Of a stretch of DNA of 25,208 nucleotides, positions 180 through 24,826 are shown in pieces. The stretch's first letter is position 1. Each line of letters starts with the position of its first letter. The notes under the pieces were generated by a model. That model had not been told where the DNA came from. It did not search any database and saw only the letters and a program-made list of their open reading frames with translations. This DNA comes from a virus (taxonomy: Duplodnaviria > Caudoviricetes): positions 1 through 25,208 of the IMG/VR virus record IMGVR_UViG_3300025084_000201. One strand, 5' to 3'. Both the position numbers and the translations under genes were made by a program.

Positions 180-1226
180 ATGGCTTATACAAATATAGAC
201 GACCCATCTGCATATTTTCAGGCTAAGACCTATACTGGTAATGCTACTGATAATACACCAATAACCAACGATGGTAACAGCAATTTACAAGCTGACTGGA
301 TTTGGTTTAAAAGAAGAAGCTCTACTGAGAACCATGTATTAGCTGACTCTACAAGAGGAGTAACAAAATGGTTGTTTAGTAATTTAACTAATGCTGAAGG
401 CACTTCTACGGCACGACTTAAATCTTTTGATACAAATGGTTTTACTTTGGGTGATACTGGTTCTACAAATCAAAATGGTGCAAATTTTGTAGCATGGGAA
501 TGGAAAGCCAATGGTGGTACGACCTCAAGCAATACGGATGGAGATATAACTTCAACTGTACAAGTTAATCAAGATGCTGGGTTTAGTATTGTTACAGATT
601 CACCATCCAATAATACAGCTAGAAGCATAGGTCACGGATTAGGCGTTGCACCTCAAGTTGTTATTAGACGAGCAAGAACTCGAGTAGAAAGTTGGAGAGT
701 ATTTCACAGTTCAGCAGGTTCAACAGGCTCTTTAAAACTTAATGATAGTTCTGCATACAATTCTAGTACAGTTTTATTTACTGGAGTTACTTCTTCAACT
801 TTTGGAGTAGGAACAGATTTTTCAGTTAATGGTAATTACAACTATGTAAGTTACTGCTTCGCAGAAAAACAAGGCTACAGCAAGTTTGGTTCGTATAAAG
901 GTAACGGAAACACAAATGGTGCTTTTGTTTATACAGGCTTCAAACCTGCTTGGGTAATGGTGAAACAAAGTAATACAGCTAGAAATTGGCAAATATTTGA
1001 TAATAAAAGAGACGGATATAACAAAGACTATATGCCGAGATTACAAGCAGATAACGATTCACCAGAAGCTGCAAGTTCTGGAGCTAGTATGGATTTTGTA
1101 AGCAATGGTTTTAAAATTAGAACAAGTCAAACAGGAGCAAATCAAAACGGTGGAACATACATCTACATGGCATTTGCAGAAAATCCATTCGTAACATCAA
1201 CAGGAATCCCAACAACAGCGAGGTAA
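180..1226 (+). CDS. Tail fibre / receptor-binding beta-rich structural protein, 348 aa
   Basis: Three internally similar units (YTGN...WIWFKRR...VAWEW; FSIVT...HGLG..P...YVSYCF; FGSYKGNG...GFKPAWVMVK...YIYMAFAE), rich in G/S/T/N. This pattern is common in marine phage tail proteins. Confidence 0.7.
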   Translation: MAYTNIDDPSAYFQAKTYTGNATDNTPITNDGNSNLQADWIWFKRRSSTENHVLADSTRGVTKWLFSNLTNAEGTSTARLKSFDTNGFTLGDTGSTNQNGANFVAWEWKANGGTTSSNTDGDITSTVQVNQDAGFSIVTDSPSNNTARSIGHGLGVAPQVVIRRARTRVESWRVFHSSAGSTGSLKLNDSSAYNSSTVLFTGVTSSTFGVGTDFSVNGNYNYVSYCFAEKQGYSKFGSYKGNGNTNGAFVYTGFKPAWVMVKQSNTARNWQIFDNKRDGYNKDYMPRLQADNDSPEAASSGASMDFVSNGFKIRTSQTGANQNGGTYIYMAFAENPFVTSTGIPTTAR

Positions 1227-1229
1227 ATT

Positions 1230-1850
1230 ATGTGGGCTTTAGTAGAATCAGATAACGTAACACAAGTCTTTACAAGACCTAAAGGTATGACTATAGGAGA
1301 AGTTAATTACCCTAGCAATATCTTTATGCTTTGGACAGCTTCTGAATTAGAAGCTATAGGGATTTATGAAGTCGTTATCGACAACACAAACTTAAAAGAT
1401 AAAGAGTATTACATCAACACCAATCAAAGCTTTGACTTTGCAGACGGCGTTGTAACAGCTTCATACGGTGTGGCAACTGCTAAACCTTTAGATGATGTTC
1501 TATGGCAAGAAGGCGATGAAGGTATGCCAGAAGAAACATCTGTAGGCGATGTAAAACAACCCGGTATCCGTCAAGGCTATAAAGATACTATCAACTCTCA
1601 AGCCGGTGGTATCTTACAAGACACTGACTGGATGGTTGTTAGAGCTGCAGAAGGTGGTACAGCCGTACCAAGCGATATAGCAACTTGGAGAGCTGCAGTG
1701 CGTACAAAGTCTAATGACATGTGTACAGCTATTGACGGTGCTGCAGACGTAGATGCTTTAGCAGCTTTATACACTTATACAAATACAGGTACTGAAGAAA
1801 GTCCTGTTTACACAAGACCTTTAGGTGAGTTTCCAGAACTAGGAGCATAA
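1230..1850 (+). CDS. Tail fibre assembly chaperone-like protein, 206 aa
   Basis: The C-terminal LQDTDWMVVR...VPSDIATWRAAVR resembles the L..TDW....W..YR signature of tail assembly chaperones. The protein is acidic and directly follows the tail fibre genes. Confidence 0.6.
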   Translation: MWALVESDNVTQVFTRPKGMTIGEVNYPSNIFMLWTASELEAIGIYEVVIDNTNLKDKEYYINTNQSFDFADGVVTASYGVATAKPLDDVLWQEGDEGMPEETSVGDVKQPGIRQGYKDTINSQAGGILQDTDWMVVRAAEGGTAVPSDIATWRAAVRTKSNDMCTAIDGAADVDALAALYTYTNTGTEESPVYTRPLGEFPELGA

Positions 1851-1851
1851 C

Positions 1852-2094
1852 ATGGAACTATCAGCATATATTATTTGGAACATCTTTATAACTTTAGTCT
1901 TAGCCCCTATATGGTTTCAGATTAGGCAGAACACTTCAGAGCTTAGAAGACAAGATATATTGCTGAACAAAACACGTGAAGGTATTGCGAAAGATTATGT
2001 AACCAAAGATGAGCTAAGAAACGATATGACAATCATAATGGAAAGAATGGATAAAATCAGTGAAAAGCTTGACAAACTCTTTGAAGTTAAGTAA
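1852..2094 (+). CDS. Small membrane protein (N-terminal TM helix plus coiled coil), 80 aa; possibly lysis-related
   Basis: Hydrophobic AYIIWNIFITLVLAPIWF, then a heptad-like tail (MERMDKISEKLDKLF). AGGAG Shine-Dalgarno upstream. Confidence 0.6.
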   Translation: MELSAYIIWNIFITLVLAPIWFQIRQNTSELRRQDILLNKTREGIAKDYVTKDELRNDMTIIMERMDKISEKLDKLFEVK

Positions 2095-2095
2095 A

Positions 2096-2218
2096 ATGGT
2101 AGTAAAGAAGAAAAAAACTAAGAAGCTTCCTGCTTCGACCTTAGTTATTTCAATTACTACTGTACCTTCAAAGATGTTGAAGAAATTAACACGTAGGAAA
2201 AACAATGGCAAAAGATAG
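2096..2218 (+). CDS. Small, very basic protein, 40 aa (not in the ORF track)
   Basis: MVVKKKKTKKLPASTLVISITTVPSKMLKKLTRRKNNGKR*. The ATG is 1 nt after the upstream TAA and the TAG overlaps the start of the next gene, so it fills the gap exactly. Confidence 0.6.
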   Translation: MVVKKKKTKKLPASTLVISITTVPSKMLKKLTRRKNNGKR

Positions 2219-4484
2219 AAAAAAAAGAACTAAAAAGTATAAAGCTACTTATAAAACAGATGGTCGTGTCGACATGAGTCAAGGTGGTCGAGTTGGTTAT
2301 CGTGAAGGTGATGAAATTCGTATAGACCCTGCAACTGGTCAAGCATTACAAAATCAACAAGCTGGAGAAGCTGAACCTGCACCTATTCCGGCACCTAGAA
2401 AAGCAAGTAAACTATTATATTCAGATGGAATAGCCCCTGAAAAACCAGCCCCTGTATTAGAAACTAGAAATGCTAGAGCAGATGCTATTAGACAAAATAG
2501 AGGTCAATTAGAGTTTGACCAAAGCTATGATTTTAATATTCCCGGTACTCCCGGATATAATCCTAATCTTCCTACAAAAGCACCTACTGGTCCGTTTGGT
2601 GGACCTCTGGGCGGTTCTCCTGCACCGACTCCTGCACCGACTCCTGCACCGACTCCTGCACCTTTAACAAAAGAAACATTTGAAAAAGAACGTAGAGAAA
2701 GAATGATTGAAGCTGGTAGAGAAGCTGAGAAAATTGCTAGAGGAGAGATACCAGAGGGAATTATTCCACAACAAGAAATAGTTTCTGTCCCTACAGGACC
2801 TGCATATGAATCAGAGGCTATGCAACTTGCTGAAAGAAAAGGAGTTAGTCCTGAATTAGTTAAAGAAGTTGGTACTGAAGCTGTACAACAAATAGAAGAT
2901 ATTTCGACAGTTAAAACTCCTGAGCCTGTTACTGCTGCTAAAATTGAAGCTGAACAAATTACAACAGCTCCTGAAGTTGCTGTAGCTCAAGGTGAAATTA
3001 AACAAGAAGCTTTAGCAAAAGCTGCAGGAGTAGAGAGAGTAGACCCTATTCAAGCGGTTACAGTTGATATACCTGAAGGTGCATTAGCTGAAAGAGTTAT
3101 TGGTACTCTTAGTCAAGACTCTAAAGCTCAAGCAGCTCAAAATGCTGGAACATCTTTAGCAAGAGTTACACGAGCTAAAAAACAATTACGTAATGCTGGT
3201 CTTAGTGAAGAAGATATTACAGAGCTTGGTAATGACCCTGAAGCACTTGAAGCAAGGCTTACTGAGTTTACTGAAGAACAAAGAGGGATTATTGAAGGGT
3301 TACCTCAAGAAGCTTTAGTATCTAATCAGTTAGACAGTTTATTAAGTGGCATTGAAGAAGGTGAAATACCCTCGTGGGCTAGACCTGCTGTTGCATCAGT
3401 AGAACAAATGTTAGCTCAAAGAGGTATGTCAGCCTCAACAGTTGGTAGAGACGCCTTGCTCAATGCAATTATTACTTCAGCGATACCGTTAGCTCAGTCT
3501 AATGCTCAAGCAATACAACAAAGTGTTTCACAACAAAAAACAATTGAAGCACAAGCTGACTTACAAAATACACAGTTTAGACAACAAACTGCCATGCAAA
3601 ATGCACAAAATGTTTTTGCAATGGACATGGCTCAGTTCAGTGCTGATCAACAAACCAACTTAGCTAACAGTAAATTTTTACAAACAGTAGGTTTAACTGA
3701 AGCAAGTATGGAGCAACAATCAGCTCTACAAAACGCAGTGTTAATGTCACAAGCTAATTTAGCTGAAGCAGACTTTTATCAAAAAGCACAAATACAAAAT
3801 GCTCAAGCTTTTTTATCTATGGATATGGCAAATTTAAATATCCAACAACAAGCAAATGTATTACAAGCTCAACAAGAACAGCAAAGAATGCTATCTAATC
3901 AAGCTGCAACAAATGCTGCAAGACAGTTTAATGCTGCAAGTGAAAATCAAACACAACAATTTATGGCAAGTTTGAATACACAAGTTAGTCAGTTTAATTC
4001 TCAACAAGAAAACGCAGTAAAGCAATTTAACGTACAACAGGCTAATGCTGCTGAAGCCAGACGAGTTCAAAATGAATTAGAAGTTAATAAGGCTAATGCT
4101 GCTATTGTTAATCAAGTAAAACAATTTAATGAACAAATAGATTTTAACAGAGAACAGTTTAATGTGCAAAACGCACAAGCAATTGAGCAGTCAAATGTAG
4201 AATGGAGAAGGAAAGCTAACTTAGCTGACACTGCTGCACAAAATGCTATTAATCAAGAAAACACTAAAATGGCATTTAATATATCTTCTCAAGCTCAAGC
4301 ATTTTTATGGCAAGAGTTAAGAGACCAAGCCGACTATGATTTTAGATGGGCTAATGATACAGCTACAAGAAAAGTACAAGCCATGGTAGCTGCTTCAAGT
4401 GCAGAAGGTGATGCTGCTAAAAATTGGCAGACTAATTTTAATAATGTTTCATCAACCATTGATAGAATGTTTGGTATAGGATAG
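2205..4484 (+). CDS. Internal virion / DNA ejection (pilot-like) protein with a long Q/N/A-rich 11-residue-repeat coiled coil, 759 aa
   Basis: Basic N-terminus, Pro-rich linker, and 22 consecutive 11-aa repeats at aa 451-692. AGGA SD upstream. Located after the tail genes. Confidence 0.7.
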   Translation: MAKDRKKRTKKYKATYKTDGRVDMSQGGRVGYREGDEIRIDPATGQALQNQQAGEAEPAPIPAPRKASKLLYSDGIAPEKPAPVLETRNARADAIRQNRGQLEFDQSYDFNIPGTPGYNPNLPTKAPTGPFGGPLGGSPAPTPAPTPAPTPAPLTKETFEKERRERMIEAGREAEKIARGEIPEGIIPQQEIVSVPTGPAYESEAMQLAERKGVSPELVKEVGTEAVQQIEDISTVKTPEPVTAAKIEAEQITTAPEVAVAQGEIKQEALAKAAGVERVDPIQAVTVDIPEGALAERVIGTLSQDSKAQAAQNAGTSLARVTRAKKQLRNAGLSEEDITELGNDPEALEARLTEFTEEQRGIIEGLPQEALVSNQLDSLLSGIEEGEIPSWARPAVASVEQMLAQRGMSASTVGRDALLNAIITSAIPLAQSNAQAIQQSVSQQKTIEAQADLQNTQFRQQTAMQNAQNVFAMDMAQFSADQQTNLANSKFLQTVGLTEASMEQQSALQNAVLMSQANLAEADFYQKAQIQNAQAFLSMDMANLNIQQQANVLQAQQEQQRMLSNQAATNAARQFNAASENQTQQFMASLNTQVSQFNSQQENAVKQFNVQQANAAEARRVQNELEVNKANAAIVNQVKQFNEQIDFNREQFNVQNAQAIEQSNVEWRRKANLADTAAQNAINQENTKMAFNISSQAQAFLWQELRDQADYDFRWANDTATRKVQAMVAASSAEGDAAKNWQTNFNNVSSTIDRMFGIG
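2617..2662 (+). repeat. Perfect 12-bp tandem repeat (CTCCTGCACCGA x3.8) encoding (PAPT)n
   Basis: Units at 2617-2628, 2629-2640 and 2641-2652, with a partial unit at 2653-2662. Confidence 0.95.
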
Positions 4485-4493
4485 GAGATTAAA

Positions 4494-5468
4494 GTGGGAA
4501 AACTAAGAAAAATTGCTAAAAAAATTGGCAAAGGTATAAAAAAAGTTGTCAATAAAGTTGGTCGAGCTTTTGGAAAACTAGGAATTGTTGGTCAACTGGG
4601 AATGATGTTTTTAATGCCTTATGCTATGTCCGGGCTAAGTCACTTATGGAGCAGTACCGTTGGTAAAGCCTTCGGTCAATTTGCAACACAAGGGTTGTCT
4701 CAAGGTACAACAACTTTTGCATCTAGATTAGTAGCTGAAGGAGGATTAAAAGGAGCTGTTGGACAAGCTATGGGAGCTATTCATAGTGCTGGTTCTGCAA
4801 TAGGAACTGCTTATAATTCTCTTAGCACAGCAATATCTAATGGCTTTGATAGAGCTGGTAATTTTTTACAAGGCGAAGGTTTTACTTTAAGTGAAGGAAG
4901 GACTCCTGTATTCGGTAGTGGAGCTGAAGATATTATTAAAGAAAGTGCAGTAGAACAAACTGCTTTAGAAGAATATGCAAAAAGAGAAGGAGTATCTTTA
5001 AATGAAGTAGGCAAAAAATTAGATACTGGAAAAATTTTAGGAATCGAAGATAAAGCAATCACAGATGTTATTGCAGAAAAGAAAAGCTTACTTGAAAGAG
5101 GAAAAGATTTTGCTTCACAATCTTATGATTCTATGGTAAAAGATTTAACTGATCCTTCAAAGTATGGTAAGAAAGCAGCTCAAACTGCTTTTGCACATTT
5201 ACAAACAGCATTAGCTCCGGCAATGCCACAACAAACGCTTAATATTGTTAGACCTTTAGATATTGGAACTATTGATGCATTTAATACTCAAGGTATATTT
5301 AATCAAGCAGACTTTACAAGTATGAATAATGCTTATCAAGCACAAGGAAGTTCTTGGGGAGCAACAAATCAACTTGGACAGTCTTATCTTATGGAACAAG
5401 CAAGTATGGGAAGTACAAACTATATTAATGATATGAGAAGACTTCAAGGATATGGAGGAAATAATTAA
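4494..5468 (+). CDS. Probable ejection protein with a cationic amphipathic N-terminus and Gly-rich hydrophobic helices, 324 aa
   Basis: GTG start with AGGAG SD. MGKLRKIAKKIGKGIKKVVNKVGRAFGKLG is followed by hydrophobic IVGQLGMMFLMPYAM and GxxxG-type segments. Confidence 0.6.
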   Translation: MGKLRKIAKKIGKGIKKVVNKVGRAFGKLGIVGQLGMMFLMPYAMSGLSHLWSSTVGKAFGQFATQGLSQGTTTFASRLVAEGGLKGAVGQAMGAIHSAGSAIGTAYNSLSTAISNGFDRAGNFLQGEGFTLSEGRTPVFGSGAEDIIKESAVEQTALEEYAKREGVSLNEVGKKLDTGKILGIEDKAITDVIAEKKSLLERGKDFASQSYDSMVKDLTDPSKYGKKAAQTAFAHLQTALAPAMPQQTLNIVRPLDIGTIDAFNTQGIFNQADFTSMNNAYQAQGSSWGATNQLGQSYLMEQASMGSTNYINDMRRLQGYGGNN

Positions 5469-6061
5469 TGAGAGAAGAGTTTAACCAAGAAGGGATAGAT
5501 GCTCTTGTTAATGCAGGAAAACCTATTCCGGGACAGTCTTTAACAAATAGCCCTGATCAAGGTTATCCTTGGGAAGGACCCCCTGAATTTACTAACTTTA
5601 GAGAAGCTTTAAATTTTATTGCTGAAGAGCTTTTAGTAGAAGATATTTATGTTCCTCTTATGGTTGGTATTGGGCAGGGAGTTCCTGTTTCTGATGTAGC
5701 TTTACAAGTATTACAAAGAGGTTTTCAAGAGGGTAAATGGAACCCAGATTTATTGTTATTATTGTTAGAGCCTGTAATGTATTTACTAATGGCGTTATGT
5801 GAGAAAGCAGGGATTAATGACTATCGTTTAACAGGGGATGAAGAAGATGATCTTGAACCCGAAGATGAAAATGAAATAGCTGAAATGAGAGCTAATAATT
5901 TAAAAAAATATGCTGATAGTAAAATTGATAAAAATAGGAAAGTTCCTGAGGGAGTTTTACCAAAAGAAATTGTAGAAGATATTGAAGAGCTTGAAATACC
6001 TGAAGGATTACTTAGTAGACCTCAACAAGCTCAACCAAGTTTATTAGGACAGCAGGAGTAA
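5468..6061 (+). CDS. Acidic hypothetical virion-module protein, 197 aa
   Basis: GGAGG SD and TAATG overlap with the upstream gene. Carries a PIPGQSLT...PWEGPP motif. Function not recognised. Confidence 0.6.
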   Translation: MREEFNQEGIDALVNAGKPIPGQSLTNSPDQGYPWEGPPEFTNFREALNFIAEELLVEDIYVPLMVGIGQGVPVSDVALQVLQRGFQEGKWNPDLLLLLLEPVMYLLMALCEKAGINDYRLTGDEEDDLEPEDENEIAEMRANNLKKYADSKIDKNRKVPEGVLPKEIVEDIEELEIPEGLLSRPQQAQPSLLGQQE

Positions 6062-6064
6062 AGA

Positions 6065-8029
6065 ATGGCTAACGGTTTATATGAAGGTGATGGTGGAGTT
6101 TCTTTTGGTCAAGAACAGTTTGAAGCAAAAAGAAAAAGAGAAGAAAAGGAACAAAAAAAACAACAGCGAATACAAGAAAGTTTATATGCTATTAATCTTA
6201 CAGCAGCAGGAGCCAATTGGTTAATTAATAGAAATGCTGAAGAAGCAGAAAGAAACGGAGCTGTCGCACGATCACATTATTTAGCTAAAAATGAAACTGC
6301 TAAAGAATGGAATACTATGCATAAAGAATATGAAAAGCTAGGTTATTCCAGAGATCAAATGCTCGAAGCTGAAACAAGAAAAAAACTTAGAAATCATTTA
6401 CTTGGTATTTATGGTGAAGAGTTTAATGTTGATGGCTTTAGTGATGCTATCAATGAAATTTCTAAAAATTATTCTAAGAATCCTGACAATTTAGCATCTT
6501 GGAATAAAACTGTAGATGCTCAATTAGCTATACCAAACTTATCTCATGAAGATATGATTGAACTTATTAGGGCAGAGGGAGAAGCTCCAAAAACTATTGG
6601 TTCGTGGTTCGGTAACAAAATATTAAAAATGGCTAAATCACATGATAAGGAAACTTTAACAGAAGAAGATAAATTAGCTAAAGAAAAATTACTCAGTGGT
6701 TTAATTGGAGATCAATTTAAAAATGCTACTTCTGCTCTTGAAGCTTATGGTAAACTAGGCAATCCTGTCGAACAGCTTGTAGAGTTTATGAAAAGTGAAG
6801 AAGGTAAAAAAATTACAGTTTACAAAGACTCCAATGTTAATACATTTGAAAACGTTGTCGAGGATAAATATGGAGGAAAATCTAAAGTTACATTTGCAAC
6901 AACAATTGCACAAGCTCCCGATGGTTCGCCAGTACAAATCGGTGATGCTATACCTATGGGTTCCTATACTCTTACAGGTGAACGAAAAACTCGTAATCCT
7001 ACAGAGTTAAAAACAGGGCAAGATGATATAATTGCTTACATAAATAGGGCAAAAGATGTAGACTTAGAAGATTTTTACAAAAATGAATTTAAAGATAATC
7101 CAGTATCTTATACTAATAATATTTTAGATACTGCAGAAAACCTGATAAGTACACAAGGCTTATCAAAAACTCAAGCTATAGCAGCAGCTACTGAATATGT
7201 ATCGGGACAAGACTCTATTATTGTTGATACTAATATGAGCTTGTTTGATTTAGATAATATGCAGGGTACAGTTAACACTGAAAAATTACCTCAATATATT
7301 GAAAGTATTAAACAAGTAAAGCCTGAATATGGAGTTGAGCAAGAACTTAGAGGAATGAGAGATCAATTTTTATTAGCTATTAAAGAGTCAGAGTTGGATG
7401 ACCAACAAAAAATAGATGAAGAACTAGCTCTTAATAGTATTATGAAAAATGCTGGTATTATTCCAGCCGAGGAATATAATAACCTTGTTATAAATGGAGG
7501 TAATGAATCTCCAGAAGTAAAAACGTGGTTGCAAGAATTAAATGAAATACCTTATGCTGGTAGAGTATCAGAATTTTTAGTAGGGGAGGAGCTTGATCTG
7601 TATGATGCAGCATGGTTAGCTCCCGGTTATGGACTTTATAAAATTGGGGGTAAAGTTGCTAGTAAAACTTTAATTCCTAAATTAGCAGATAACATAATAA
7701 AATCTAAAAAAGGACAAGCCTCGATAAATAAAATTAGAACAAGAATGATGGAAGGCTTTAGCAATACAGCAGATAAAGATAATTTTTTAAAAGGACTTAC
7801 CATTGTAGAAAAAGCAATTTTTAGAGCTATGTCTAAATCAGAAAAAAATGTAAGTACTCCTATGTTACAAATTTTTAGAAAAGAGCTTGCGGAAATGCCG
7901 GGTTTATATCTTAAAGCCTATCTTCCTAGTTTAAAACAAACAGTTGGCTGGGGTTTATTTGGTGGTTTATCTGCGTATGGATTCTATAGTAAAGCCACTT
8001 TACCTGAAAAAAAAGAAATTGAAGATTAA
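6065..8029 (+). CDS. Large helical probable internal virion protein, 654 aa
   Basis: AGGAG SD. Mostly helical and charged, with a C-terminal Gly-rich hydrophobic segment (VGWGLFGGLSAYGFY). Sits directly upstream of the giant protein, like T7 gp15 before gp16 (positional inference only). Confidence 0.55.
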   Translation: MANGLYEGDGGVSFGQEQFEAKRKREEKEQKKQQRIQESLYAINLTAAGANWLINRNAEEAERNGAVARSHYLAKNETAKEWNTMHKEYEKLGYSRDQMLEAETRKKLRNHLLGIYGEEFNVDGFSDAINEISKNYSKNPDNLASWNKTVDAQLAIPNLSHEDMIELIRAEGEAPKTIGSWFGNKILKMAKSHDKETLTEEDKLAKEKLLSGLIGDQFKNATSALEAYGKLGNPVEQLVEFMKSEEGKKITVYKDSNVNTFENVVEDKYGGKSKVTFATTIAQAPDGSPVQIGDAIPMGSYTLTGERKTRNPTELKTGQDDIIAYINRAKDVDLEDFYKNEFKDNPVSYTNNILDTAENLISTQGLSKTQAIAAATEYVSGQDSIIVDTNMSLFDLDNMQGTVNTEKLPQYIESIKQVKPEYGVEQELRGMRDQFLLAIKESELDDQQKIDEELALNSIMKNAGIIPAEEYNNLVINGGNESPEVKTWLQELNEIPYAGRVSEFLVGEELDLYDAAWLAPGYGLYKIGGKVASKTLIPKLADNIIKSKKGQASINKIRTRMMEGFSNTADKDNFLKGLTIVEKAIFRAMSKSEKNVSTPMLQIFRKELAEMPGLYLKAYLPSLKQTVGWGLFGGLSAYGFYSKATLPEKKEIED

Positions 8030-8031
8030 CT

Positions 8032-11000
8032 ATGACACTACTTTCTACCAAGGGAAATAAAAAATCTCGTTTAGGTCGTAATTATACATTAGATGATTTA
8101 GAAAAAAACGAAGACTTTCAAGAAATATCAGAAAGGTTTTTAAGTTCTGTAGGAGAACAGTCTGATGATATATTTGAGTATTTAAGAGACTCTGATTTTA
8201 ACTTATTTAATGGTATGCAACGTGCCATAAATAGTGAAAAATTCACTCAACAGCAAAAAGACGACTATAAATATCTACGTTCTCGTTTTGACAGAGCAGA
8301 CATGGGCAGCTTGAAACAATATATTGAGCTTGTTAAAGATGCTGCTGTTGATATTTCGACAGACCCAACTGCTATTGCTGCTGCTTTATTAACTCCTGTT
8401 ACTGGAGGAACTTCTTTTGGTGCGAGACAGGCGGTAGCAACTGGTGTAAATCAAGGTTTAAAAAATATAGCAAAAAGTAAAATTACTCCTGCTCAAACAG
8501 TTGGAATTGCTGCAGCAGAAGTTGGTGCATGGACAGGTCTAGATAATCATTTTAGACAAAACACCGAAATAAATACCAATATGAGAAAGCTTTATTCTAA
8601 GCCTGAATTAGTAGGCAGTACAGCTATTGGAGCTTTGACAGGTGGTATTTTTGGAGGACTTGCAAGAAAAAACGAGTTCTTCCAAGACAGACTAGAAAAA
8701 CTTTATACTGATGATGGCTATAGAAAAGAAGCCGGTAGTGATTTATTATATAATTTAAGAAAAGCAAAAGATACTTTACTAGCTAAAACACTTGCAAGTC
8801 CTGCTTGGATTTTAAAAACTGATGCAGAGTTTTCACCCACTGCAAGATTACTGGGTCAAAAATTTACTTCAGAGTTTGATAAAAGTTTAGTAGCTAAAAC
8901 TAAACGTAGAGTAGGTTATTCATATGCTGAAGATATTAACTTTAGAAGAGGTAATTATAAACTAGGATTTGATGAAGCTGTTGCTCCAATTAGACAGGTT
9001 GGAGAAGTTTTACCAGAAGATGAACAAGCTGTTATAACTTTAATGCGAGGCGGTGAAGTTGCTGGAGCAAGTCAGGCTGTAAGACAAACTGCAGAAAATT
9101 TAAGATTATTTTTTGATCAAATTAAAAAAGATGCAGAAGAAGTTGGTCTGGACCCTAAGTATATAGAAAATTATTTTCCTCGTTCTTGGAACAGAGACGC
9201 CATTAAAAGTAATCCTGAAGTATTTAAACAAAAATTAATTGATAATAATATTGTCGAAGCTGATAAAGCTGATAGTGTTGTTGAGGGAATGTTAAATAAA
9301 CAAAACGAACTTTATAGTTCTCATTCAAATCTTTTAACTCAAGCCCGTAAGTTTGAAAATTTAGATGATAATGAATTTGCAGAATTTCTTACAAATGATT
9401 TAGTTCCTGTTACTACAAATTATTTTATGAATGCTGCTAAGACTATTGAGCATAAAAAACATTTTTTAAATGCTGGTCGAGACGTTAGAGTAATAGGAAA
9501 AACTGAAGACGAAAACCTTATATTATTTAAACAAGATAATCAATCTCAGTTTGTTGAAAGATTTATTAATCCTATTGATGCTGAATTAAGGGCAGCAAGA
9601 AAAGGTAAAGGATTATCAGCTAAAGAAAAACAAAGAATTATTGATGTGTATAAATCTGTTACTGGTCAGGTTGATTACTTTGACAGTGGCTTAATCCAAG
9701 GTATCTATGATGGTACTAAACTTGCTAATGCTATGGCTTATCTGCCACTAGCTACTGTATCTTCATTGTCAGAAGCATTCATTACACTTGGTAAAGCTCC
9801 AACAAGTTCTGCTATCAAAGGAGCACAAGATGGTATTACACGAGGTCATAAATTATTTACCTCTGAAATATCTCAACTATTAAAAGAAAAACATAACTTG
9901 ACAGATGATGAAGTATTAAAAGAAATGAATAGTGTATTTCTTGCCGTAGATGAAGCAATGTCTGATGTAACAAATCGTTTATCTGGAGAAGGATTACAAA
10001 ATGAGTTTTTACAAAAACAAGCTAGACGTTTTTATAGATTTAATTTACTTATACCTTGGACAAAAACAGTTCAACTTGCTTCGTTTTCAACAGGTAAAGA
10101 TTTAATTCAAACAAACTTAAAACAATTAGCAGACCCTAAAGGACTTAGTAAATCTAAAATAGAAAGATTAACAGGTGAATTAAATGATCTAGGTATAGAT
10201 ATTGATAAGGGTCTGACGTGGACTAAAAAGTATGGGGATGAAGTAACAGACCAAGCGAAGTCTGATGAGTTTTACCGTAATGATATTATTAGAGGTGCTG
10301 GAAGATTTACAAATGGAGTTATCTTACAGACATCTAGAGAATATGCAACTGTTCCTACTTTTATGACAAATCCAAAAGTAGATATATTTACACAGTTTTT
10401 AAGATATCCCACAGTTTTTGGTAATACTGTATTACGAAACTTTGCTAGAGATACAATAACTGATACTACAGTTAACGCACCTAAACTTGCAGCCTTTGTT
10501 TTAATGTCTACAAACGTTGCTAAGGCTACTAATTACTGGAGAAGTTCTCCTGAAGAAAGAGAAAGAATAAAAGACGATGGTACTGATTGGAGAGATACTT
10601 TAAAAGCCTATCAACGTGTTGGACTTCTTGGTCCATTGGAATATCCGGTTAGAATTACTGAAGGTATTTCATATGGTCAGAATCCACTAGTGGCTACAAC
10701 TGGTGTTGGTGGTCCAGTCATTAATGATATCATTGGGTTAACTTTATATAACCGAGGATTTTTAGAAACAGCAGCTAGAAAAATTCCTTTAACAGGAACT
10801 AAAAATATTTTTGACAGAGCTGTCGGAGATATTATGGAAGAGTATACAGGATTTAGAGACCCTTATACTCCTTTACAAAAAGCTGCAAAAGAAATAGATA
10901 AAAAGATTCTGAAAGGATTTAGAGAAGGAGCTGATGTCGTAACAGCCAGAGAAACAGAAGAGGCTAGTTTACTTACAAGAAACAGATTATTAAAGTTTCA

Positions 11001-12708
11001 AGGTGGTCCTGTATCTCAAATAGACCCATATACTATGCAAGAAATAGATTATAGAGATCAGTTTTCCGTAGGTGGTGTAGTAGGCGAAGAAGTAATAGAA
11101 GGTCCGGAAGTTCCTTTTACAAAAGATAACGCTGCTGAAAGAGTTAATCCTTTTACTGGAGAACCTTATCAAGAACAAATGGATAGACTAGGTTTTAGTA
11201 AAGGTCAAATAGTCATGGTTCCTCCTGAAAAGAAAGAAATAGATAGTCTTAAAAAAACTATTGATTCTATGATTGGTTCATACGAAAATAAAAATGAATA
11301 TGTTTCTAAATTAAATAACGTATTAAGTCCTTATCATAAAATAAGTTTTCCAAATTCATTTAATTTATTAAAAAGAGAACTTGTAAATTATGTTTATAAA
11401 GACGAGCCTAAACTATCATTTCAATCAGATGTTGAAAAAAGAATTGCAGAGCAGGGTAAAAATAAATTATTAAAAGTTATTAATTTTAAATTACAAAATG
11501 AATTAAATTTAAAAAAAGAGGGATGGAATCCTAGTAAAACTGCTGCAGTTTTAAAATCACCTTTTGAAAAAGTGATAGAAGTTAGTAGAGTAAAGAAAAA
11601 TATTGGAGGTAAAATTGCTTCTAAATTTATTTCAAAAGCTTATGATAAATCATTGGCTCAGAAAACTCAAATAGCTACAACAGGTGGTACATATTCAAAA
11701 GCTGCAAAAATTATGGAAGACTATCAGAAATTTAACTCACTAGATTATGGTTCCGGAATGCAAGTGAATCAAGCTAAACAAGCTTTAAATGCAGACACTT
11801 TTGAACCGTTCCCTCAACTAGATAAAGCAGAAAAATATGGGATGCCTGATTTTGTAAGAGCAGAAGATATAAATAAAAAATATGATTTTATTACAAACTT
11901 TTCAGTTCTAAATGTTTTACAAAAAGCAGATCGAGATAAAGCTGTAAAAAATATTGGAAGGTTATTAGATGATAACGGTATGGCTATTATTACAGTTAGA
12001 TCAAAAGATGATGTTTTAAAAGCATCACCAAAAGCAAAAAGCAAACTTTCTGATTCAGAGCTTATCACAGCAAAAGGAACTTATCAAAAAGGTTTTACCC
12101 GTAAAGAATTAAAAGAATATTTAAATAAAACTTTAGGTGAAGACTATGATGTAATGGACTTACCTAACAAATATAAAATGTCTGGTGTCGGTGTTATTAT
12201 TAGAAAAGTAAGGAAGCCTTATAATGAAGGTGGTCCAGTTAGACCTGAGTACATTGGTAAAGATGCATATGAATCAGCTATTTTAAAGTTTGCTGAATCA
12301 GATTTAGATGCTCAATTACTCCGTGAGTTTGCGTGGGTTGAGTCAAAGTTTGCAACTGATAAAGAAACTTTTAGAAAAGATAACAGAAGTGCCTATCAAA
12401 TAACACCTATTAGATTTCAAGACTATACAGATTCTTTAAAAGAAGATTCTGAAGTAGGTGCTGGATTAAGAAGATATGTTTCAAAGATGGAAAAAAAATA
12501 TGGAGCAAATTATCAAGACATCGCATATGATGACCTCAATAATCCTGAAATAGCTACCCTAGTCACAAGGGCTTTATTAAAAAGAGTACCGGAACCAATC
12601 GGAGAAACAAAAGAAATAAGAGCAAAGCAGTGGAAAAAAGACTGGAACACGGAAGAAGGGGCAGGTACTGTAGAGAAATATTTAACAGATTTAAAATATT
12701 TAAAATAA
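8032..12708 (+). CDS. Giant internal virion (ejection) protein, 1558 aa, with a C-terminal class I SAM methyltransferase (aa ~1196-1393) and a lysozyme/transglycosylase-like domain (aa ~1404-1558)
   Basis: The N-terminal ~980 aa are helical with Gly/Ala-rich hydrophobic stretches and a YFPRSW motif. MTase motifs: LDYGSG, YDFITNFSVLNVL, LLDDNGMAIITVR, GTYQKGF. Lysozyme-like motifs: AWVES, AYQI, WNTEEGAG. Confidence 0.75.
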   Translation: MTLLSTKGNKKSRLGRNYTLDDLEKNEDFQEISERFLSSVGEQSDDIFEYLRDSDFNLFNGMQRAINSEKFTQQQKDDYKYLRSRFDRADMGSLKQYIELVKDAAVDISTDPTAIAAALLTPVTGGTSFGARQAVATGVNQGLKNIAKSKITPAQTVGIAAAEVGAWTGLDNHFRQNTEINTNMRKLYSKPELVGSTAIGALTGGIFGGLARKNEFFQDRLEKLYTDDGYRKEAGSDLLYNLRKAKDTLLAKTLASPAWILKTDAEFSPTARLLGQKFTSEFDKSLVAKTKRRVGYSYAEDINFRRGNYKLGFDEAVAPIRQVGEVLPEDEQAVITLMRGGEVAGASQAVRQTAENLRLFFDQIKKDAEEVGLDPKYIENYFPRSWNRDAIKSNPEVFKQKLIDNNIVEADKADSVVEGMLNKQNELYSSHSNLLTQARKFENLDDNEFAEFLTNDLVPVTTNYFMNAAKTIEHKKHFLNAGRDVRVIGKTEDENLILFKQDNQSQFVERFINPIDAELRAARKGKGLSAKEKQRIIDVYKSVTGQVDYFDSGLIQGIYDGTKLANAMAYLPLATVSSLSEAFITLGKAPTSSAIKGAQDGITRGHKLFTSEISQLLKEKHNLTDDEVLKEMNSVFLAVDEAMSDVTNRLSGEGLQNEFLQKQARRFYRFNLLIPWTKTVQLASFSTGKDLIQTNLKQLADPKGLSKSKIERLTGELNDLGIDIDKGLTWTKKYGDEVTDQAKSDEFYRNDIIRGAGRFTNGVILQTSREYATVPTFMTNPKVDIFTQFLRYPTVFGNTVLRNFARDTITDTTVNAPKLAAFVLMSTNVAKATNYWRSSPEERERIKDDGTDWRDTLKAYQRVGLLGPLEYPVRITEGISYGQNPLVATTGVGGPVINDIIGLTLYNRGFLETAARKIPLTGTKNIFDRAVGDIMEEYTGFRDPYTPLQKAAKEIDKKILKGFREGADVVTARETEEASLLTRNRLLKFQGGPVSQIDPYTMQEIDYRDQFSVGGVVGEEVIEGPEVPFTKDNAAERVNPFTGEPYQEQMDRLGFSKGQIVMVPPEKKEIDSLKKTIDSMIGSYENKNEYVSKLNNVLSPYHKISFPNSFNLLKRELVNYVYKDEPKLSFQSDVEKRIAEQGKNKLLKVINFKLQNELNLKKEGWNPSKTAAVLKSPFEKVIEVSRVKKNIGGKIASKFISKAYDKSLAQKTQIATTGGTYSKAAKIMEDYQKFNSLDYGSGMQVNQAKQALNADTFEPFPQLDKAEKYGMPDFVRAEDINKKYDFITNFSVLNVLQKADRDKAVKNIGRLLDDNGMAIITVRSKDDVLKASPKAKSKLSDSELITAKGTYQKGFTRKELKEYLNKTLGEDYDVMDLPNKYKMSGVGVIIRKVRKPYNEGGPVRPEYIGKDAYESAILKFAESDLDAQLLREFAWVESKFATDKETFRKDNRSAYQITPIRFQDYTDSLKEDSEVGAGLRRYVSKMEKKYGANYQDIAYDDLNNPEIATLVTRALLKRVPEPIGETKEIRAKQWKKDWNTEEGAGTVEKYLTDLKYLK

Positions 12709-12944
12709 TGTTATTATATACAGAAAAGCAATTAGACGTGGCATACAGAATAGACTGTAAAGCTCGTAGTCAATCAGATGAGCCTTGGATAACTCGTGAA
12801 GACTTTAGACCTTTGTATGAAGATTTGATAGAATCTTACATGATTGCATACAAAGAAGATGATATTTTTTCTACAACTATACCGGAGTATTTAGTAGATT
12901 CAGTAAATGATTTACTTTCTTTAACTTTAACTACAGAAAATTAG
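12708..12944 (+). CDS. Hypothetical protein, 78 aa (MLLYTEKQLD...)
   Basis: Start moved to the ATG at 12708 (TAATG coupling with the giant gene). The track's upstream extension overlaps the previous gene. Confidence 0.6.
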   Translation: MLLYTEKQLDVAYRIDCKARSQSDEPWITREDFRPLYEDLIESYMIAYKEDDIFSTTIPEYLVDSVNDLLSLTLTTEN

Positions 12945-12945
12945 T

Positions 12946-13380
12946 ATGGGTTTTCCTTTTGAAATAATTACAATGCTTGGTTCAACGTTATTAAGTGGAT
13001 TACTTAGTCTATGGTCTCAACGTATGAAGGCTAAACAAGAAGAACAGAAGATGTTAATTGCTAGAACTGAAGTTCAAAATGCTGCTATCTCAGATGCTAG
13101 AACTTATGAGAACAAAGGATTTCAATGGACAAGAAGAATTATAGCATTGACAGCAATTTTTTCTATTGTATTACTTCCAAAGCTTGTACCGTTATTCTAT
13201 CCTGAAGTTTTAGTTACAGTTGGCTATACCAATTGGAAGCCCGGATTTTTATTTTTTACAGATGGAAAAGAAATATTTGAATGGATTTCATTTAATGGAT
13301 TAGTTATCACTCAACTAGATACTAATTTAGTATCAGCTATTATTGGTATGTATTTTGGTGGCAGTCTTGTCAAGAAATGA
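12946..13380 (+). CDS. Holin-like membrane protein with about 3 hydrophobic segments, 144 aa
   Basis: Hydrophobic N-terminus, charged coil, WTRRIIALTAIFSIVLLP TM segment, and a C-terminal IIGMYFGGS resembling the 3TM (GTA-type) holin pattern. Confidence 0.55.
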   Translation: MGFPFEIITMLGSTLLSGLLSLWSQRMKAKQEEQKMLIARTEVQNAAISDARTYENKGFQWTRRIIALTAIFSIVLLPKLVPLFYPEVLVTVGYTNWKPGFLFFTDGKEIFEWISFNGLVITQLDTNLVSAIIGMYFGGSLVKK

Positions 13381-13658
13381 AAGAGTTTATAAGTGCCATA
13401 GAGACTATAGGGATTCCGGCTGCTGCTGCAATAGGCTTGGGTTACTTAGTATGGACACTATTTAAAAGTTTAATTTCAGACATCCACAAAAAACTAGATA
13501 CGCAACACACGATGATTGTTTCCTTGATTGATAGGATAAGGCAAATGGATAATGATATGATACGTATCGACACATTGGTTCGTACTGCATTAAAGTTACC
13601 ACCAGACGTTGCTAGAATAGCTCGGGCTGATGGTAAGAAAGACGTAAGAAAAGATTAG
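13377..13658 (+). CDS. Small membrane protein (one TM plus coiled coil), 93 aa; possible lysis accessory
   Basis: ATGA overlap with the upstream gene. TM segment IGIPAAAAIGLGYLVWTLF and a charged C-terminus. Last gene of the + arm. Confidence 0.55.
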   Translation: MKEFISAIETIGIPAAAAIGLGYLVWTLFKSLISDIHKKLDTQHTMIVSLIDRIRQMDNDMIRIDTLVRTALKLPPDVARIARADGKKDVRKD

Positions 13659-14855: not shown

Positions 14856-15031
14856 CTGTTCTCCTTGTTAAATTTCTTAACTAAATATTTTAAATTTTCA
14901 ATTACGTATCCTGCGTAATCTTTTGTTTTTGAGAATGGGTCTTTATGTTCATCACAATAATCTAACCACATCCTACTTGTAAAGCCAGAAAACTTCTGAC
15001 TAAACACCTTGTCAAAGTCTGATTGTTTCAT
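14852..15031 (-). CDS. Hypothetical protein, 59 aa (not in the ORF track)
   Basis: MKQSDFDKVFSQKFSGFTSRMWLDYCDEHKDPFSKTKDYAGYVIENLKYLVKKFNKENR*. AAGGA SD; its TGA overlaps the nrdB ATG (ATGA). Confidence 0.75.
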   Translation of the reverse strand: MKQSDFDKVFSQKFSGFTSRMWLDYCDEHKDPFSKTKDYAGYVIENLKYLVKKFNKENR

Positions 15032-15032
15032 A

Positions 15033-15176
15033 TTAATCCTTTGGTAAATAAACTATAACAGCAGAGTTACATTTAGGACAAGTTAAATTAGTTTCCATAA
15101 TATACTCATCGTTCTCATCTTCTATGTCGTGATCTCCACCCCATATTAGTTCTGTTCCACAATGCCAACAACCCAT
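15033..15176 (-). CDS. Small CxxC...CxxC metal-binding (zinc ribbon-like) protein, 47 aa (not in the ORF track)
   Basis: MGCWHCGTELIWGGDHDIEDENDEYIMETNLTCPKCNSAVIVYLPKD*. The ATG is 1 nt after the nrdA stop, with a GAGG SD. Confidence 0.8.
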   Translation of the reverse strand: MGCWHCGTELIWGGDHDIEDENDEYIMETNLTCPKCNSAVIVYLPKD

Positions 15177-15177
15177 A

Positions 15178-24100: not shown

Positions 24101-24826
24101 TTAATTAATTGTAAATGGTATTGAACAATTTGTTGTTGTAACACTTTCAAAATTTAAATCTAAAACGTATCGTTTAACAGCTCTTTTTAATCTTGAATTA
24201 TTAGTACCTATAATATTAATATTGATAGGTGTTCCTACTTCGAGATCAAACTTAGCATTAAATTTTTCAGTATTTTTTATTGTAATATTTTTAATATAAG
24301 TTACAAATTTTCTATTTGATTTAGGTCTAGGACATGAAGCCTTTGATAAAGATTCTTTAACAATTTTAGAAGGGGTCTGAGGCTCACTGAGAGTCTCTGT
24401 ATAAACCTCTTTGCTCTGTCCCAATGCTTGGGTACCAGTCAACACTCCGAAACCTCCTGTGGCTCCTGTCGTATTGACTATTTCTTCAGAAGTTTCAAAA
24501 GTATTTTCAAAATTTTCAACCTCTTGTCTTAATTCATCAAGCAAAGATAAAACATTAAGAATGTCTTGTGAAGTTTCATACTCTAAACTATTTATTCTAT
24601 CTTCTAAATTATTTATAGAATTTAAAATAACATTTTGTCTAGCTAAAACATTATCATAAATATCCGTCTTAGCATCTAGTTGAATTTGTAAAGTTTTTAA
24701 AGCTTTACGCATACCTTTTACGTCTTCTGAGTTATCACTTATTTTTGAGCCAACAGTCCAAGATGTGGTGGTTGCTCCAATAAATAAAATAAATAATAAA
24801 ATTTTAAATATAATATTTTTTTTCAT
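24101..24826 (-). CDS. Membrane-anchored/periplasmic protein with a coiled coil and a TonB C-terminal-like domain, 241 aa
   Basis: MKK plus hydrophobic anchor, heptad region, S/T/E/G linker, then FNAKFDLEVGTPININII...RLKRAVKRYVLDLNF...SIPFTI, which resembles the TonB_C pattern. AGGAG SD. Confidence 0.55.
   Translation of the reverse strand: MKKNIIFKILLFILFIGATTTSWTVGSKISDNSEDVKGMRKALKTLQIQLDAKTDIYDNVLARQNVILNSINNLEDRINSLEYETSQDILNVLSLLDELRQEVENFENTFETSEEIVNTTGATGGFGVLTGTQALGQSKEVYTETLSEPQTPSKIVKESLSKASCPRPKSNRKFVTYIKNITIKNTEKFNAKFDLEVGTPININIIGTNNSRLKRAVKRYVLDLNFESVTTTNCSIPFTIN

Follow-up and report, generated by a model that had tools for sequence, protein, structure and literature searches.

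A short peptide motif delimits exchangeable modules in the tail of a giant predicted ejection protein of marine podophages

Introduction

Large internal virion proteins of the T7 gp16/IVP-D type (IVP-D, short for internal virion protein D) are known to host variable lysozyme domains together with passengers bound for the cytoplasm, for example the S-adenosylmethionine (SAM) methylase site in H66 gp60 (PMC4819975). In T7 gp16 itself the muralytic domain is N-terminal and the C-terminal part enters the cytoplasm (PMC8954989). Polyvalent proteins are multi-domain conflict proteins, and their processing by built-in zincin peptidases has been proposed (Iyer et al. 2017, PMC5512222). Proteolytic maturation has been described for siphophage tape measure proteins, since pb2 of T5 is cleaved after R1127 and lambda gpH is cleaved as well (Linares et al. 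2023, PMC10038345). The present work concerns a gene at 8032–12708 (+ strand) of the IMG/VR virus record IMGVR_UViG_3300025084_000201, the whole 25,208-nucleotide (nt) stretch of which is called the window below. The window is a marine podophage fragment with two converging arms, and the gene encodes a predicted ejection protein of 1558 amino acids (aa), the tail of which is divided by five copies of a short peptide motif.

The protein resembles the T7 gp16/IVP-D family in being a large helical ejection protein whose gene closes the late arm (Hardies et al. 2016, PMC4819975); however, where the passengers are treated in that paper they are described as integrated, without a repeated fence motif, whereas the cargo of the window protein forms a C-terminal train exchanged at a fixed peptide. 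Like polyvalent proteins, it unites several conflict-related domains in a single chain, in combinations that vary, and its relatives carry ART-PolyVal, lysozymes and a methyltransferase, the last of which is also present in unfenced polyvalent proteins; the accessible text of the polyvalent paper (PMC5512222) does not contain the word 'glycine'. T5 pb2 differs in being a siphophage tail protein with one mapped cut and without the flanking Arg and Val, and the site is not presented as a shared motif in the consulted portion of its description (PMC10038345). Cargo on such ejection proteins is thus already known, while the motif-fenced cassette architecture is undescribed: a full-text literature search, with most subscription papers outside its coverage, found no description of the motif in phage virion proteins.

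Results and Discussion

Motif copies and their confinement to the tail

The five peptides listed in an earlier note on this DNA, made from the sequence alone, were recovered in the open reading frame (ORF) 8032–12708 at 10984, 11053, 11185, 11587 and 12211. They start at residues 985, 1008, 1052, 1186 and 1394, and residues 1–984 hold no copy, in agreement with the motif-free N-terminal part of about 980 aa noted before. The protein is laid out as follows.

8032..12708, + strand: giant internal virion (ejection) protein, predicted, 1558 aa, conserved core followed by a cassette tail
8032..10983, + strand: core, mostly helical, resembling T7 gp16/internal virion protein D by fold and sequence matches, motif-free
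10984..11013, + strand: motif copy 1, RLLKFQGGPV, with a basic residue at position 4 (pattern and profile)
11053..11082, + strand: motif copy 2, RDQFSVGGVV (pattern and profile)
11185..11214, + strand: motif copy 3, RLGFSKGQIV, with Gln instead of the second Gly (pattern and joint comparison)
11587..11616, + strand: motif copy 4, RVKKNIGGKI (pattern and profile)
12211..12240, + strand: motif copy 5, RKPYNEGGPV (pattern and profile)

In homologues of the ejection protein the motif is confined to the tail. When the window protein was shuffled 3000 times, the earlier note's pattern never matched more than once; as that pattern was fitted to the same five copies, a fixed strict pattern, R-x-x-[F/K/L/Y]-x-x-G-G-x-V, applied to homologues is the stronger test. 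The homologue set consisted of the best 120 of 248 proteins found with the core, the window protein included, ranging from 909 to 2,218 aa with 49–88% identity in the searched core region. The strict pattern matched 212 times in 64,668 tail residues versus once in 113,732 core residues, shuffled tails yielded a mean of 3.55 matches, and at least one motif copy was present in all 120 tails. A profile, the seeds of which included four of the five window copies, scored these five at 15–23 bits, the next-best site in the protein reaching 1.9. The consensus of 186 distinct sites is R(165)-x-x-[F 104, K 28, L 23, Y 21, R 8]-x-x-G(182)-G(167)-x-[V 115, I 25], counts that lean to the consensus because the sites were chosen by a profile trained on the same set. 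Lys or Arg occupies position 4 in 36 of these sites, and the second Gly is missing in 19. Tandem sites account for 14 of all 335 sites, and seven of the 335 lie 25 residues or fewer from the C-terminus.

A chance pattern or an assembly chimera might be suspected, given that the earlier pattern was fitted after the fact and that the window is a metagenomic contig. This explanation is refuted, and keeps a negligible probability, in view of the 212 matches versus 3.55, the recurrence of the modules in relatives and a 3,938-nt contig from the run of another sample that covers window positions 9500–13345 with two differences; the giant gene is therefore no assembly chimera.

Modules of the tail

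Cutting the 120 tails at the motif gave 335 modules that fall into 52 clusters, of which 34 have members of at least 100 aa, and these occur in 42 arrangements, in support of the interchangeable cargo proposed in the earlier note. The train of the window protein has the following order.

11002..11070, + strand: module M1, 23 aa, IDPYT-type, an optional element among relatives (38 copies in the 120 proteins; module clustering)
11071..11202, + strand: module M0, 44 aa, most constant of the tail elements (98 copies in the 120 proteins), without a family name (module clustering)
11203..11604, + strand: orphan module M10, 134 aa (module clustering)
11605..12228, + strand: class I SAM-dependent methyltransferase-like cassette, 208 aa, with LDYGSG at 11740, opening with a basic amphipathic helix (sub-cut-off family matches)
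12229..12708, + strand: terminal lysozyme/transglycosylase-like cassette M14, 159 aa (phrog_3108)

The domain borders previously placed at copies 3–5 hold, these copies opening M10, the methyltransferase-like module and M14, respectively. The methyltransferase assignment follows from a match below the cut-off to Pfam Methyltransf_23 (E 1.5e-5); a search for hints at its substrate gave only sub-cut-off matches (TIGR04096, E 0.0012) and no relative in the PDB. M14 matches phrog_3108, with SLT clusters as a lead. M10 has no family in Pfam, PHROGs or NCBIfam and only unnamed Atlas clusters below the recognition threshold, and its weak relatives sit ahead of the same methyltransferase in other proteins. 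The M0 family comprises 244 clusters at 50% identity; 15 of 62 long M0 hits have the present core, and 12 of the other 47 have a core like that of HTVC115P gp40, which is distantly related to the window core (E 1e-6). Motif counts in this M0-based search are circular, the query having held the motif, and are not used as evidence. M0 has no PDB match, and neither M1 nor M0 has a match among cultured phages; a homology of M0 to the tape measure hook was rejected (hhalign probability 1.2%). A single-sequence fold of the tail (mean pLDDT, the predicted score of the local distance difference test, 36) was not used.

Among the cargo that could be named in 29 scanned relatives are three lysozyme families, ART-PolyVal and L5 gp82-like domains. 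Modules classed as muralytic, by Pfam for some clusters and by inspection for others, occupy the last place in all 81 cases, and in relatives M14 is replaced by other muralytic families. Cytoplasm-type cargo mostly starts with a segment that is basic and amphipathic (net charge +2 to +4, moment 0.37–0.66; exception M41), such a start being absent from most muralytic modules (M3, M7, M8 and M14: charge −1 to 0, moment 0.20–0.35; exceptions M6 and M49). A further module, M2, of 660–830 aa (P0011–P0020 and others), occurs in 36 of the 120 homologues; it belongs to no Pfam or PHROG family and has internal hypervariable segments and a truncated form of 132 aa (M12).

Exchange of modules at the motif

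Comparison of the homologues reveals gain, loss and exchange of modules at the motif. The nearest relative, P0002, has the same train minus the methyltransferase only; P0003, P0005 and P0006 have a phage tail lysozyme in place of M14, and P0004 carries an additional module inserted between M0 and M10. Of 412 ends of pairwise protein alignments, 170 (41%; random 15%) lie no more than 10 residues from a motif, with 72 ends on the two Gly residues; of 230 alignment starts, 111 (48%; random 9%) lie equally near. In a tree built from 115 cores, at least 32 changes of the terminal muralytic type were counted (77 rows, 11 types; no shuffle control), and the proteins P0028 and P0029 have identical aligned cores and different lysozymes. 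The same is seen in DNA: loci L035 and L036 share 99.4% identity for 6,294 nt, part at position 9456, within the first Gly codon (9455–9457), and come together again at the gene end. Among 77 close pairs, several further alignments end −11 to +3 nt from the first Gly codon. The earlier note had proposed to test whether C-terminal domains swap exactly at the motif; this holds for the gain, loss and exchange at the motif, but not for breakpoints that lie within modules, so that mosaicism extends beyond the joints. The 77 related loci were kept from the best 80 of 140 in an alignment-based scan, a first core-based scan having found two.

The methyltransferase was also found in 98 longer proteins. 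The five closest (70%) are motif-fenced on both sides and are followed by other lysozyme-type modules, but of all 98 only nine have the motif on the N-side and 16 on the C-side, and most of the distant ones are unfenced polyvalent proteins. In eight runs aligned to window positions 9500–13400 no joint skipping the methyltransferase was seen, contigs being prone to drop rare variants. A contig of run X14 matches window positions 11171–11205 (about 35 nt) as far as motif copy 3, beyond which its sequence differs; it is possibly another cassette start at the joint, the match being short and from another phage.

The constraint at the joints acts on the peptide. The DNA identity between the window copies is 0.48 versus 0.475 after random recoding, which agrees with the similarity mainly at protein level reported before, and over 120 joints the identity is 0.518 versus a recoded expectation of 0.516. 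The idea that the joints contain DNA repeats or a recombination site at nucleotide level was likewise rejected, only short chance families, one 13-nt match between copies 1 and 5 and no identity excess over recoding being found. The suggestion that the motif also serves as a recombination joint is therefore only partly borne out, with exchange at the motif but no DNA-level signal beyond what the peptide imposes. The joint after M0 could be located without using its Gly residues in 61 of the 120 proteins. When cargo follows, Arg and the first Gly are kept in 32 of 32 distinct cases, with Gly-Gly in 25; when none follows, Gly is kept in 0 of 6, two of which stop before that position.

These data bear on the explanation that sees in the motif no more than a flexible hinge or unfolding point, inherited with the cassettes, offering micro-homology for exchange and read by nothing. 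The pile-up of breakpoints on Gly-Gly would suit it, as would the low confidence of residues 962–1033 in the core model (see below) and a somewhat increased use of GGT codons at both Gly residues (0.70 vs 0.53). It is nevertheless improbable, since Arg, the position-4 residue and Val recur at fixed spacing in unrelated proteins, since joint DNA is no more alike than recoding predicts, and since the motif also occurs at the N-terminus of the ORF 2205 family (32/46), where no cassette joint is evident.

The core of the giant protein

The 1558-aa protein is the largest of the phage, mainly helical and last in the late operon. PHROGs and tblastn tie its core to a Bruynoghevirus virion protein of about 1,050 aa. 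A Bruynoghevirus protein of matching size and position, Pa223 gp53, is termed gp16-like and was detected in virions according to the available part of that report (10.1101/2025.06.11.659172). A model of the core (residues 1–1061, 52 sequences) is almost all helix with a mean pLDDT of 55; in the PDB its top five hits are all to ejectosome or core proteins, from PhiM1, T7 and E1004 (best E 1.6e-4, template-modelling (TM) score 0.18), and its matches in the viral library include internal virion protein D and large polyvalent proteins. A sequence search of the PDB with the core protein gave no match. The core is thus well supported as a T7 gp16-type ejection protein, as the 'giant ejection protein' of the earlier note implied, with the fold, viral-library and tblastn matches behind the assignment and its presence in the virion and its ejection extrapolated from the Bruynoghevirus counterpart. 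The late regions of phiEco32, CHOED, phiM6 and TL, tried as further relatives, gave scattered weak matches only, their large protein being without a motif tail.

Other motif-bearing genes

Besides the giant gene, the window holds one further motif-bearing ORF, and two head-region genes bear the motif in relatives, so that the search for such ORFs recommended in the earlier note was productive. The neighbouring late genes are as follows.

2205..4484, + strand: late protein, 759 aa, with a basic N-terminal leader that ends in two tandem motif copies (2265–2294, 2289–2318; motif scan)
4494..8029, + strand: three genes (324, 197 and 654 aa) in the position of other ejection proteins, without a conserved motif (role inferred from gene order)

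In related loci 32 of 46 members of the ORF 2205 family are above the motif threshold, and of the 14 that miss it, 13 are truncated where their contig ends. The motif was found in 0 of 42, 0 of 56 and 2 of 45 members of the other predicted ejection families, ORFs 4494, 5468 and 6065, respectively. The protein encoded at 4494–5468 starts with a long basic amphipathic helix, similar to the segment found after the motif in cargo modules of the cytoplasm type.

Four long relatives (G001–G004, 71–97% complete) have a gene between portal and scaffold with two to three motif copies and, after the capsid gene, a basic peptide of 38–63 aa that consists largely of motif repeats and is above the threshold in three of the four. 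The repeat peptide genes lie at L081:12532–12687, L083:6962–7153, L085:5625–5783 and L088:9071–9187, with HTVC115P gp73 as a further case, encoded between portal and scaffold. The product of the portal–scaffold gene is acidic, 209–295 aa long (L081:9834–10463 (G003), L083:4252–4917, L085:7852–8535, L088:6145–7032), and contains a near-invariant tape measure C-terminal ('hook') domain flanked by motif copies. With its siphophage tail domain in a podophage head gene, it is a candidate for the reader of the motif. Among cultured phages, HTVC115P (gp40, gp72, gp73) and HMO-2011 (gp25, gp49) carry the motif core, whereas the HTVC115P homologue of ORF 2205 has no motif.

Such a distribution would suit an uncut docking or packaging tag that binds portal, scaffold or another head protein, its copies holding the chain in the prohead or ordering its exit. 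Four kinds of late gene carry the motif, and none of the 674 opposite-strand ORFs in related loci does; tandem and terminal copies, the motif-repeat peptide after the capsid gene, the tolerance of the second Gly and the lack of a recognised protease in G003 also fit a tag. This explanation is nonetheless rather unlikely. The M0 joint decays where the cargo is missing, something that a plain address would not call for, T5 is cut at a similar site, and the absence of the motif from the other predicted ejection proteins and from the HTVC115P homologue of ORF 2205 means that it is no general packaging signal.

A putative maturation cut site

The reading of the motif as a maturation cut site is given about an even chance. 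The translation of NC_005859 made in this analysis, on which the match to R1127 rests, has R-A-E-G-G at pb2 residues 1127–1131, and the T5 cut therefore falls after the residue corresponding to motif position 4, two residues before Gly-Gly. If pb2 is the model, the cut in the present proteins would likely take this position too. Four of the five window copies are in the T5 register, with x-x-G-G after the cut residue, copy 3 having GQ. The cleavage at Gly-Gly that the earlier note had proposed would then be in the wrong register, and the second Gly is dispensable, as the 25 of 32 M0 joints illustrate. Near its C-terminus lambda gpH has FATGG and RGYATGGYV, no mapped cut position for gpH being found in the literature search, and JBD30 gp46 has FASGG and HATGG. 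The domain after FASGG in JBD30 is a predicted 'hook', according to the part of the publication available (PMC11445458); this hook domain recurs in the portal–scaffold gene of the relatives, separate from the cassette protein.

In the proposed mechanism the core would carry the whole chain into the head, where an unrecognised protease, either host-encoded or a phage protein of no known family, would cut after position 4 as in T5 pb2. The freed pieces would be ejected separately, the terminal muralytic module acting in the periplasm and the methyltransferase, like the ADP-ribosyltransferase-like cargo of relatives, reaching the cytoplasm. Exchange would proceed by ordinary recombination and survive when an intact joint is left ahead of the new module. 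The position of the muralytic module, last and beside cytoplasm-type cargo, unlike in T7 gp16, is easier to explain if the pieces are released.

Several observations weigh against such a cut. The earlier note had advised a search for a protease, and none was recognised among the 67 ORFs of the 97%-complete relative G003; the only peptidase family among them is the tail-fibre chaperone S74, and HExxH occurs in no listed ORF of that genome. The T5 site shares only the x-x-G-G core with the motif, lacks Arg and Val and is outside the five best profile scores of pb2, and the second Gly is present in only 167 of the 186 sites and replaced in copy 3. P22 gp7 was rejected as a model because its cut adjoins KGG in another register. 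Little would be released at terminal and tandem copies or from the motif-repeat peptide after the capsid gene. Some DNA breakpoints in the 77 close pairs lie off the joints, inside the 740-aa M2 or in downstream modules, and the distant Bruynoghevirus and Slicky01 cores have no motif tail. The crAss001 cargo protein spans capsid and tail, and no cleavage is mentioned in the accessible part of its description (PMC10172136).

Known processing systems were compared as well. Double-glycine leaders and viral Gly-Gly polyproteins depend on a dedicated C39 or clan CE cysteine protease and have an invariant Gly-Gly before the cut. The motif differs from them in the 19 of 186 sites without the second Gly, and no C39 or clan CE family was detected among the 67 ORFs of G003 or in 29 window proteins and segments. 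A zincin-like metallopeptidase, a common though not universal theme of polyvalent proteins, was represented by no Pfam family in the window protein or 59 related proteins.

A broader and more tentative proposal, which is doubtful at present, is that one x-x-Gly-Gly code might be common to siphophage tape measure proteins and podophage internal proteins and be read by an unrecognised protease. The motif would then be the socket of marine podophages for injected enzymes, and the peptide after the cut might act as a second address, with a basic amphipathic helix on methyltransferase and ADP-ribosyltransferase-like cargo and none on most cell-wall enzymes.

Genomic setting

The late arm of the window occupies 180–13658 on the + strand, and the replication arm on the − strand encodes DNA polymerase A, primase-helicase and ribonucleotide reductase. 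HTVC103P-type pelagiphages are nearest by DNA polymerase (HTVC115P, 51%), and the likeness to HTVC103P-type and HMO-2011-type phages extends to the late arm and the motif core; cultured phages matching ORF 2205 are of these two types and a few others (26 records). An early-arm protein of 241 aa (24101–24826, − strand) has an N-terminal hydrophobic segment and a coiled coil, and no above-cut-off family in Pfam or PHROGs. A 322-nt gap without an ORF of at least 60 aa separates the two ribonucleotide reductase genes (14856–15177). The relative G003 carries a block with CsgF, CsgG, FecR and a CHASE2-adenylate/guanylate cyclase at the junction of the two arms (L057:14671–19381), a block that the window does not have.

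Implications

With the motif as a guide, the unannotated 575-residue tail of the giant protein can be read as a cassette array, and a rule for parsing cargo becomes available for hundreds of proteins of marine phages. The cultured phages HTVC115P and HMO-2011 make cutting testable by mass spectrometry alone. If the joints are docking tags, the internal proteins of this phage group would have in the motif a first defined address; if they are cut, the motif would link the long-known, unexplained maturation of the lambda and T5 tape measure proteins with the ejection proteins of podophages.

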